From: Escherichia phage EC.P1
Sequence record: PQ657772.1
Length of the DNA stretch: 64,000 nt
Strand: one strand, 5' to 3'
Below, in pieces: positions 35,741 through 36,730 of this stretch (the stretch's first letter is position 1; each line of letters opens with the position of its first letter). The position numbers were made by a program, and so were the translations under genes. The notes beneath the pieces were generated by a model that worked only from the letters and a program-made list of their open reading frames with translations, did not search any database and had not been told where the DNA came from.

Positions 35741-36730
35741 TTATTTGTCCCCTAGAAATTGTTGATATTTCTTCTGGAGACTTTCGAAAATGTCTTCGAC
35801 TTCTTCATCGCTTTCATCTTCTAGTTCTTCGTTACCTTCCACGGACTCATCACTCTCATTAACATTGAGTGGGTTGTCACCTAGAGCAGTACCTGGGAAC
35901 TTAGGTTCAAATTTGTGAACACGGTTCTCGTTACCGTCATTGTCATAGTACTCTGGTTCAGGACGATTGTCAACATCTTCATCAACGACACGTCTCCAGT
36001 AGAACTTGTTACCCTTGGTAATAACAACAAAGTGGTCACCTTCTACACCATTAGTTTTAGCTTGACCGTCACGAACGGCATCAGCTTCAGTGTTGTAAGG
36101 ACCAAAATCGGTACTGTCACCTTGTTCTTCATCTTCAGAGATGGTTAGGTCTGGTAGGAAAGTGTTTTCTTCAACTTTAACTTCAGTATATGGGTTACCT
36201 TCTACTGAATATTCATCTTCTGGTTCGTCTTGAAGACCAGCTAGAGATAGCATACGACTGAAATCGAATTCTTCTTCGATGATTTCTTCTTCTTCCTCTT
36301 CTTCAACTGATTCTAGTTGAGGTTGACCGGAAAGATCTAAAGAAAACTCTTCTTCATCTGCAACACCAGGCTCTTCGAACTCTGCATCCATACTTACTTC
36401 TTCAGAATCACCACCAAAATCACCAGCTTCAGCAGATAGTGAGTCAGCAGCAACTTCTAATGGGTCTTCAACAGGTGCATCAATTGCACCATCCATTGAA
36501 CCACCAACTTCTTCTTCTGCACCAGCACCAATTGAATCCATATCGAGTGGAGCGATTGGTGGTAGAGAAGGGGTCATTGACCCCATAGAAGGAACTGGAG
36601 CAGCAACCGGAGAAGCTTGACGCTCGGCTTGACCAGCTAGTGCAAGCATACGAGATAGTGTTTCTAGATCTTCAGATTCTAGTCCTGCGATATCGATTTT
36701 AACTTGTGCTTCATTAATTTTTTTAGCCAT
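35741..36730 (-). CDS. highly acidic hypothetical protein (329 aa)
   Basis: ORF track; long Asp/Glu runs (EEEEEEEIIEEEFDF); motif SRML(A/S)LAG occurs twice. Confidence 0.55.
   Translation of the reverse strand: MAKKINEAQVKIDIAGLESEDLETLSRMLALAGQAERQASPVAAPVPSMGSMTPSLPPIAPLDMDSIGAGAEEEVGGSMDGAIDAPVEDPLEVAADSLSAEAGDFGGDSEEVSMDAEFEEPGVADEEEFSLDLSGQPQLESVEEEEEEEIIEEEFDFSRMLSLAGLQDEPEDEYSVEGNPYTEVKVEENTFLPDLTISEDEEQGDSTDFGPYNTEADAVRDGQAKTNGVEGDHFVVITKGNKFYWRRVVDEDVDNRPEPEYYDNDGNENRVHKFEPKFPGTALGDNPLNVNESDESVEGNEELEDESDEEVEDIFESLQKKYQQFLGDK

Follow-up and report, generated by a model that had tools for sequence, protein, structure and literature searches.

An extremely acidic protein of 329 amino acids (aa) is encoded on the minus strand of the 64,000-nucleotide (nt) stretch of Escherichia phage EC.P1 analysed here (PQ657772.1; hereafter the window), within a run of structural genes (Table 1). 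Between positions 33000 and 39500 the window is 100.0% identical to Escherichia phage fEgEco12 (PP777464, 374.7 kilobases (kb)), whose gene numbers are used below, 98.4-99.6% identical to eight related coliphages and ~84% identical to 121Q, PBECO4 and phAPEC6; the phage is a Rak2-like (Asteriusvirus-type) jumbo myophage. The acidic protein is 100% identical to g305 of fEgEco12, annotated as "virion structural protein", and its ATG start codon follows an AAAGGA ribosome-binding site. It contains 58 Glu and 34 Asp residues, together 28% of the 329 aa, and 20 Lys and Arg residues, with a computed isoelectric point of 4.05, a net charge of approximately -72 and a run of seven glutamates (E143-E149; 36284-36304). 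The octamer SRML(A/S)LAG, present as motif 1 and motif 2, is the sole non-acidic 8-mer repeated in the protein at seven or more identical positions of eight, and any such repeat arises in 2 of 3000 composition-preserving shuffles; open reading frame (ORF), composition and shuffle test therefore bear out the initial annotation of a very acidic 329-aa protein with a twice-repeated motif. Neither copy was found in other ORFs of the 64-kb window. Both copies are kept across ~90 homologues, even where overall identity is only ~40%, indicating that the repeat is functional rather than a product of chance.

Table 1. Positions of the acidic-protein gene, its internal elements and neighbouring genes in the window. 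Arrows mark candidate bonds for cleavage by the prohead protease.
Feature	Residues	Positions	Strand	Remarks
Acidic-protein coding sequence (g305 equivalent)	1-329	35741..36730	-	329 aa, ATG start
N-terminal module	1-37	36620..36730	-	MxKK-I-N-E-A ... GLES.DLETLSRMLALAGQAE; nearly invariant
I5-N-E7↓A8 site pattern	5-8	36707..36718	-	[LIVM]-N-E-A at 5-8 in 36/36 homologues
Motif 1, SRMLALAG	26-33	36632..36655	-	within predicted helix 22-37
Acidic linker 1	38-151	36278..36619	-	indel-rich, predicted disordered, holds E143-E149
Motif 2, SRMLSLAG	158-165	36236..36259	-	predicted short helix 157-163
Beta-alpha-beta-beta domain	207-248	35987..36112	-	predicted local distance difference test (pLDDT) score >90 (AlphaFold; model span 209-247)
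Conserved segment	256-288	35867..35965	-	EPE.YD.DG...H.....PGTALGDNPL; predicted coil, moderate confidence
C-terminal helix	309-326	35753..35806	-	includes invariant I314-F-E316↓S317 (35780-35791)
Sheath		43451-46114	-	upstream of acidic-protein gene
T4 gp4-like head-completion protein		39976..40404	-	TnsA-like N domain; opens tightly packed block with acidic-protein gene
g303		38278..38823	-	181 aa; L-N-E-[A/G/R] at ~aa 15-18, conserved in orthologues
g304		36753..38306	-	upstream neighbour; virion protein in relatives
g306		35347..35739	-	downstream neighbour, 130 aa, 25% Asp+Glu; L-V-E↓A/S at 8-11 kept in orthologues
MoxR-type AAA+ ATPase		33321..34649	-	syntenic with acidic-protein gene in all relatives examined
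DUF2201_N putative metallopeptidase + VWA-like protein		31836..33245	-	partner of MoxR ATPase

The full length of the protein (residues 1-329) aligns to positions 1-317 of the 317-position PHROG 15988 profile (E = 3.3e-123), and its membership of this family is borne out by the same full-length profile match, by the position of the gene in all relatives and by the association of three members with virions. Homologues include 121Q gp560, phAPEC6 gp267c (77% identical), CBB gp213 and RaK2 gp050. A tblastn search found a single copy per genome in 72 phage records, the hosts comprising Escherichia, Klebsiella, Salmonella, Erwinia, Yersinia, Pectobacterium, Cronobacter, Serratia, Xanthomonas and Vibrio; 95 homologues remained at 90% clustering, and a profile search of 1.84 billion representatives returned 88 hits. 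In an alignment of 36 sequences, from which the conserved blocks and site counts given here are taken, conserved blocks alternate with acidic linkers of variable length. Besides the domain at residues 207-248 and the segment at 256-288 (Table 1), the blocks comprise the N-terminal module (M-x-K-K-I-N-E-A-x-V-K-I-D-V-x-G-L-E-S-x-D-L-E-T-L-S-R-M-L-A-L-A-G-Q-A-E), motif 2 (F-D-M-x-R-M-S-S-L-A-G-[I/L]-x-E-S), the sequence L-L-P-D-L-S-L-D-E-D and the C-terminal helix (V-E-D-I-x-E-S-I-N-x-x-Y-x-K-F).

The N-terminal module also occurs in remote metagenomic phage proteins that fuse it to unrelated domains and that likewise hold an acidic linker and a motif-2-like sequence, I-A-E-A-L-R-I-A-G-I-Q-L-D-E. 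This reuse fits a portable docking module, to judge from the sequences. In a set of uncultured phages (P0131, P0135, P0141, P0148 and P0155; loci L007-L009) the module lies internally, as K-L-N-E-A ... T-L-S-Q-M-L-S-L-A-G-Q-A-E, with an extra domain of ~115 aa before it and a different C-terminal domain after it (...YAKK..KDWL.LDRRY.EKLI...). One of these genes adjoins a T4 gp15-like tail-completion gene and a cell-wall hydrolase gene.

AlphaFold modelling with the family alignment gave a mean pLDDT of 57.8, and 156 of the 329 residues scored below 50, covering the acidic stretches. Helices were predicted at residues 22-37 (motif 1), 90-102, 157-163 (motif 2) and 311-326, and the small beta-alpha-beta-beta domain of ~40 residues is present in two or three copies in some homologues; modelling the C-terminal 143 residues separately led to the same result. 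Foldseek comparison of the full and C-terminal models with the PDB and BFVD retrieved only the protein's own family (E <= 0.001), a sequence-profile search of the PDB found no solved relative, and no match was obtained in Pfam (E <= 0.01), NCBIfam or PADLOC, the last of which models defence and not anti-defence proteins. Nor do the neighbouring products place the protein on a solved structure, since the sheath matches only T4-like gp18 entries and g304 and g302 are without PDB relatives. On these models, the most fitting description of the protein is that of an intrinsically disordered polyanion with short conserved binding elements and one small domain.

Published virion mass spectrometry, the kind of evidence to which the initial annotation had pointed, is positive for homologues: CBB_213 was identified by 5 unique peptides with 18.9% coverage (PMC5259590), RaK2 ORF050/gp050 by 1 peptide with 5.3% coverage and phAPEC6 gp267c by 1 peptide with 4.9% coverage (PMC7247149). 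GAP32_207 is absent from the published virion mass spectrometry of GAP32, and the papers on fEgEco12 and Sharanji contain neither proteomics nor a statement on g305. The low coverage can be attributed to the sequence itself, as in-silico tryptic digestion finds neither Lys nor Arg between residues 38 and 159. When up to two missed cleavages are allowed, only residues 12-27 of the phAPEC6 homologue, IDIAGLESDDLETLSR, yield 4.9% of its 326 aa; this peptide ends inside motif 1, and its detection in virions indicates that the N-terminal region is retained. In RaK2 the peptide of residues 12-27 is the sole fully tryptic candidate, with two missed-cleavage alternatives making three 16-residue candidates in total. 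By bubblegram imaging, the capsids of 121Q and phAPEC6 contain a phiKZ-like inner body (PMC5259590, PMC7247149).

The conserved blocks of the acidic protein also carry patterns typical of prohead protease sites. T4 gp21 cleaves after Glu in L/I-x-E, the phiKZ protease recognizes S/A-x-E, and the T4 internal proteins carry short N-terminal propeptides, or capsid-targeting sequences, that direct them to the prohead core (PMC9026906). In fEgEco12, a protease of the T4 gp21 family (Peptidase_S77, PF03420; g348, E = 8e-21) is encoded outside the region covered by the window, in a head module examined at PP777464 197000-212000 (locus L013) of that phage, which is 100% identical to the window across 33000-39500. 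The I-x-E↓S pattern at residues 314-317 is present in 36 of 36 homologues, as is the site pattern at residues 5-8, a candidate for a short propeptide or capsid-targeting-like N-terminus. Five further (L/I/V)-x-E sites, at 166-169, 186-189, 197-200, 249-252 and 290-293, are kept in at least 31 of the 36; the first of these lies directly after motif 2, where [I/L]-x-E↓S is found in 31 homologues. The motif itself is no T4-type cleavage site because it lacks Glu, after which T4-type proteases cut. Thus, of the earlier proposal of an internal virion protein processed at the repeated motif, the internal virion protein is favoured by the virion-associated homologues and the invariant site patterns, whereas processing at the motif is not.

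Similar patterns are found in the head module. The Gp23-family capsid protein, g350, starts MSQLLNE↓S and has a second site, KLMLNE↓S, at 41-44. This second site lies where T4 gp23 undergoes maturation, as the residues immediately behind it align with the N-terminal arm of mature gp23. The scaffold g349 holds 12 [LIVM]-x-E-[AGS] sites, g346 and g347 start MLKDIFE↓S and MANLKLLQE↓A, respectively, and the protease g348 keeps the I-T-E↓S of T4 gp21. In a census limited to the window plus the head module, 12 of 91 genes have a site in the first 24 residues against 6.4 expected; by group the counts are 4/7 in the head module, 4/7 in g301-g307 and 4/77 elsewhere (Fisher p ~0.001, the grouping being post hoc). 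The N-terminal V-D-E-A of g301 was rejected as a reliable site, its P1 Glu not being conserved in remote orthologues. The product of g347 (L013 4984-5817) is itself acidic (277 aa, 30% Asp+Glu) and is encoded between portal and protease, as are T4 genes 67 and 68.

Taken together, these observations lead us to propose, with moderate confidence, that the acidic protein is a disordered polyanionic internal head protein that is docked by short motifs, processed by the head protease and kept with the DNA. During prohead assembly it would be recruited into the scaffolding core by short conserved elements, namely the N-terminal MxKK-I-N-E-A module and the two amphipathic R-M-x-x-L-A-G helices. The gp21-type protease would then cut it after Glu at (L/I/V)-x-E, with candidate sites at 7↓8, 292↓293 and 316↓317 and, in most relatives, also immediately behind motif 2. 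The mature capsid would retain at least the N-terminal part along with the DNA, and the protein may be among the components of the inner body of 121Q and phAPEC6 capsids.

The closest functional parallels may be T4 gp67 and the T4 internal proteins. Like the acidic protein (MAKKINE↓A), the prohead-core protein gp67 is rich in acidic residues (44% Asp+Glu) and has a hydrophobic-x-Glu↓Ala pattern at its start (MEGLIE↓A), as does T4 gp22 (MLKEQLIAE↓A), whose LDSIFE↓S shows the same DIFE↓S context as the C-terminus of the acidic protein; the phage also shares with T4 a gp21-family protease and a gp23-family capsid protein. The relation to the T4 core and internal proteins (gp67, gp68, IPI-III and Alt) is by analogy only, as no homology of the acidic protein to gp67, gp68, the internal proteins or Alt was found in Pfam, NCBIfam or by PDB sequence. 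In contrast to gp67, the acidic protein is four times larger, with two LAG helices and a folded C-terminal domain, and unlike the T4 core genes its gene lies behind the tube genes and not between portal and protease. A suspected similarity to T4 gp68 was not borne out by the gp68 sequence. The inner-body and ejection proteins of phiKZ and SPN3US offer a second parallel: like the acidic protein, they are jumbo-phage virion proteins in which a long N-terminal stretch full of protease-site patterns precedes a small folded part; the SPN3US ejection proteins have long N-terminal propeptides that are cut at several sites and partly retained (PMC10052503). However, the protease motif in phiKZ is S/A-x-E and the patterns in the acidic protein are L/I-x-E, Pfam phiKZ_IP (PF12699) gave no match to the acidic protein, and the phAPEC6 authors found none of the phAPEC6 proteins to be similar to phiKZ inner-body proteins (PMC7247149).

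The proposed docking function of the motif draws on its likeness to the C-terminal tail of the gp22-like scaffold (L013 6536-7651). Among the 120 scaffold homologues listed (P0168-P0287), which include marine T4-like and Tara metagenome phages, 118 end in ..[AS]G[ILMVYF], typically ..LAG[ILM]. In T4-like phages the tail follows the pattern ...D-D-h-x-F-L-x-E-h-x-x-x-[A/S]-G-[I/L/M]-K/R (h, hydrophobic), and nearly all of these scaffolds close with ...[R/K]-x-L-A-G-[I/L/M] and basic residues. The tail consists of an acidic lead-in, an amphipathic helix, [L/N]-[A/S]-G-[I/L/M] and then a few basic residues, as in ..FLKELDVLSGINKK, ..EINRIRQLAGLKR and ..VELEQIRKLAGLSR, and its core is the same as the R-M-x-x-L-A-G-[I/L] of the acidic-protein family. 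With a matrix built from motif 2 of the family, the scaffold C-terminus ranked first among all positions in 63 of 81 non-redundant scaffolds. As the A-G-hydrophobic core defines both sets, the test was repeated with the core removed; the ten upstream residues alone placed the site in the top 5% in 44 of the 81 (median percentile 4%), in a rank test that is still partly circular and made on related sequences. In the reverse direction, a scaffold-derived 16-mer matrix (8-16 residues were tried) ranked motif 1 8th of 38,126 positions. A "scaffold-tail-like docking helix" is therefore a lead rather than a result, moderately supported by these comparisons of sequence. The top scaffold-tail match among the searched ORFs besides the scaffold, ADDIFELEQIEYLAGQ, was found in the 125-aa product of ORF 48265-48642 (minus strand), annotated as 'aminoacyl-tRNA hydrolase', where it probably matches by chance within a folded domain.

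Apart from the partial circularity of the rank test, several points weigh against the proposal of an internal head protein. With the scaffold-derived matrix, motif 2 has a background frequency of 4.6e-4 and motif 1 fails to reach significance, and the match in this direction is not significant because the unrelated peptidyl-tRNA-hydrolase-like ORF just mentioned scores far higher. Comparison of the acidic-protein and scaffold families by hhalign found no homology (probability 0.8%, over 14 columns that are not the motif), and whereas the scaffold tail is terminal and followed by Lys/Arg, the motif is internal, occurs twice and is followed by acidic residues. At the candidate sites, the one after motif 2 is lost in the phage of the window, which has LQDE instead, several of the conserved patterns have Asp or Glu at P1', and (L/I/V)-x-E patterns arise easily in a protein that is 18% Glu; two of the three peptide combinations possible for the CBB coverage, arithmetic that does not single out the peptides seen, include residues 4-11 and so imply that the bond between residues 7 and 8 was uncut. 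The gene is located outside the head module, behind those for the tube and for head completion, and a remote relative of the N-terminal module adjoins the T4 gp15-like tail-completion gene. Placement in the head rather than in the neck or tail, cleavage at these patterns and docking by the motifs are inferences; what can be taken as shown are the sequence features with their conservation, the occurrence of homologues in virions, the family of the protease and the predicted disorder.

A bolder version of the proposal, which we regard as doubtful, would make the R-M-x-x-L-A-G helices portable copies of the scaffold tail that, with MxKK-I-N-E↓A, form a capsid-docking code for loading the polyanion; the acidic protein, g303, g304 and g306 would then be constituents of the inner body, and the module would be reused in uncultured large phages for other cargo.

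Among the alternatives, an anti-restriction or anti-defence polyanion that imitates DNA and blocks host DNA-binding defence, whether as a folded mimic or as a disordered ejected decoy, is quite unlikely. The charge and composition of the protein speak for it, the presence of homologues in virions makes delivery with the DNA possible, and T4 IPI* provides the precedent of an ejected head protein with an anti-restriction function (PMC9026906). Membership of the acidic protein in the Ocr or ArdA families, which the initial annotation had suggested, was nevertheless rejected, there being no match in Pfam, PDB sequence or Foldseek comparison and none in PADLOC. Ocr and ArdA are compact folds presenting a fixed carboxylate lattice that mimics B-DNA. 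The acidic protein shares the strongly negative net charge of Ocr (T7 gp0.3) and ArdA, but in place of their rigid helical DNA-shaped surface its acidic stretches come out of structure prediction disordered; since these parts are the least conserved, most indel-rich and least ordered, varying freely in length and sequence among homologues, they do not amount to a rigid charge lattice, and it is the non-acidic motifs and the small domain that are conserved. The protein also belongs to a virion protein family encoded within a structural-gene block, and not among early genes as T7 ocr is. The exciting DNA-mimic interpretation is thus removed in its Ocr/ArdA form. A classical auxiliary scaffold, fully degraded and expelled before DNA packaging and with no role in the mature virion, is very unlikely: the extreme acidity and multiple (L/I/V)-x-E patterns recall T4 gp22 and gp67, and sequence coverage in virion proteomes is very low, but peptides were recovered from purified virions of three phages, including residues 12-27 in phAPEC6, and the low coverage is largely due to the long interval free of Lys and Arg. 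What survives of the earlier suggestion of a scaffold is that the motif resembles the scaffold tail, while the absence of gp22-like homology and the retention in virions tell against it.

A structural or assembly protein of the neck, tail or hair fibres, in which a disordered chain with docking motifs would link the head-tail junction or the 'hairy' tail, is unlikely, and would suit the distant synteny of a gp13-like neck gene, the sheath gene, three tube-like genes, the gp4-like gene, small virion protein genes and the acidic-protein gene, the remote carrier of the N-terminal module beside a gp15-like gene, and the hair-like fibres that Rak2-like phages bear on tail and capsid (PMC7247149, PMC5259590). 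Against it, neither fibre-like repeats nor a beta-helix is present and disorder is mostly predicted, and the invariant protease-site patterns and scaffold-tail-like motif point to the prohead, the only site of action of a gp21-type protease; the low peptide counts give no sign of a major tail component, an argument of little weight given the few tryptic sites. The acidic protein might instead be a client or adaptor of the MoxR AAA+ ATPase and its VWA/metallopeptidase partner, the VWA metal ion-dependent adhesion site (MIDAS) gripping acidic residues and the ATPase remodelling or loading the protein, an explanation with little chance of being correct. VWA MIDAS sites do bind acidic ligands, in MoxR-VWA systems such as CbbQO, the order of the acidic-protein gene, two small genes, the MoxR gene and the DUF2201_N+VWA gene is constant in all relatives examined, including metagenomic ones, and an ATPase homologue is present in phAPEC6 virions (6 peptides). 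Yet the ATPase gene has two sigma70-type promoters of its own after a 317-base-pair (bp) gap and probably belongs to another temporal class, and the conservation of the protease-site pattern and the motif would be left unexplained.

The same-strand gene order at the locus runs from the sheath through three tube-like genes, the gp4-like head-completion gene and g301-g304 to the acidic-protein gene, g306 and g307, and is kept in CBB and in remote metagenomic relatives. Homologues of g303 from GAP32 and RaK2 and homologues of g306 from CBB and RaK2 are present in virions. The g306 product matches the phiKZ internal head protein family below threshold (E = 0.0012, 18.6 bits against a cut-off of 27). 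Within g304, residues ~23-115 and ~311-403 form an internal duplication (33% identity, BLASTP E = 3e-14), and the start codon in the fEgEco12 annotation is Met15 (38264), not the GTG at 38306. Paralogy of the acidic protein with g304, suspected from a common G-Y-x-V-T..G..Y..W hairpin, was abandoned when BLASTP found nothing.

One terminator-like hairpin lies beyond the end of the sheath gene (43444-43423) and another beyond that of the first tube gene (42360-42337). Between 42337 and 34966 the sole terminator-like match is poor (38107-38082, inside the g304 coding sequence and with a weak T tail), and the genes are spaced by 1-30 nt. Given the tight packing and the lack of a good terminator, the acidic-protein gene may plausibly share a transcript with the head-completion gene and tube genes 2 and 3; to judge from these consensus scans, it need not be co-transcribed with the sheath gene and probably is not co-transcribed with the ATPase gene. 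The initial annotation of a protein co-transcribed with the sheath and tube module is accordingly tenable only in part. Two perfect 12/12 sigma70 promoters (34940-34913 and 34848-34821), each with TTGACA, a 16-nt spacer, TATAAT and an extended TG, occupy the 317 bp that precede the MoxR ATPase gene, suggesting that this gene, whose product is nonetheless present in phAPEC6 virions, is expressed by the host polymerase (early or middle). The T4 late promoter TATAAATA does not occur in the 64-kb window, against 6.7 occurrences expected from shuffles; the neck, dNMP kinase, sheath and tube genes are preceded by TATAAT(A)-like boxes instead. In the 388-bp gap between the sheath and first tube genes (43100-43450 region), the terminator-like hairpin at 43423-43444 is bidirectional, and a 104-aa ORF lies on the plus strand (43084-43398), where the sole annotated product in fEgEco12 is a 48-aa 'coat protein' of the opposite strand.

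Rak2-like jumbo phages, among them RaK2, 121Q, phAPEC6, CBB and fEgEco12, are under development for therapy and biocontrol, and most of their 50-60 virion proteins await a place or role; the acidic protein here gains a concrete proposed assignment. PHROG 15988 and its virion association were already known, and as the family was already catalogued as virion-associated, the advance is incremental. New here are the anatomy of disorder plus motifs, the conserved protease-site pattern common to the acidic protein and the capsid protein propeptide, the likeness of the motif to the scaffold tail and the identity of the phAPEC6 peptide. The first 40 residues and the LAG helices are candidate targeting elements that might serve to load foreign proteins into jumbo capsids, a use for which the T4 capsid-targeting sequence has already been tried in T4. 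Finally, several PHROGs or GenBank names in the region, at 31836-33245, 34966-35343, 38278-38823 and 39388-39945 (minus strand), are without Pfam or NCBIfam support: the product labelled 'HNH endonuclease' is the DUF2201_N metallopeptidase + VWA protein, and the labels 'Hsp70 heat shock protein', 'terminase small subunit' and 'transcriptional regulator HdfR' are likewise unsupported, all of which look like propagated mis-annotations.

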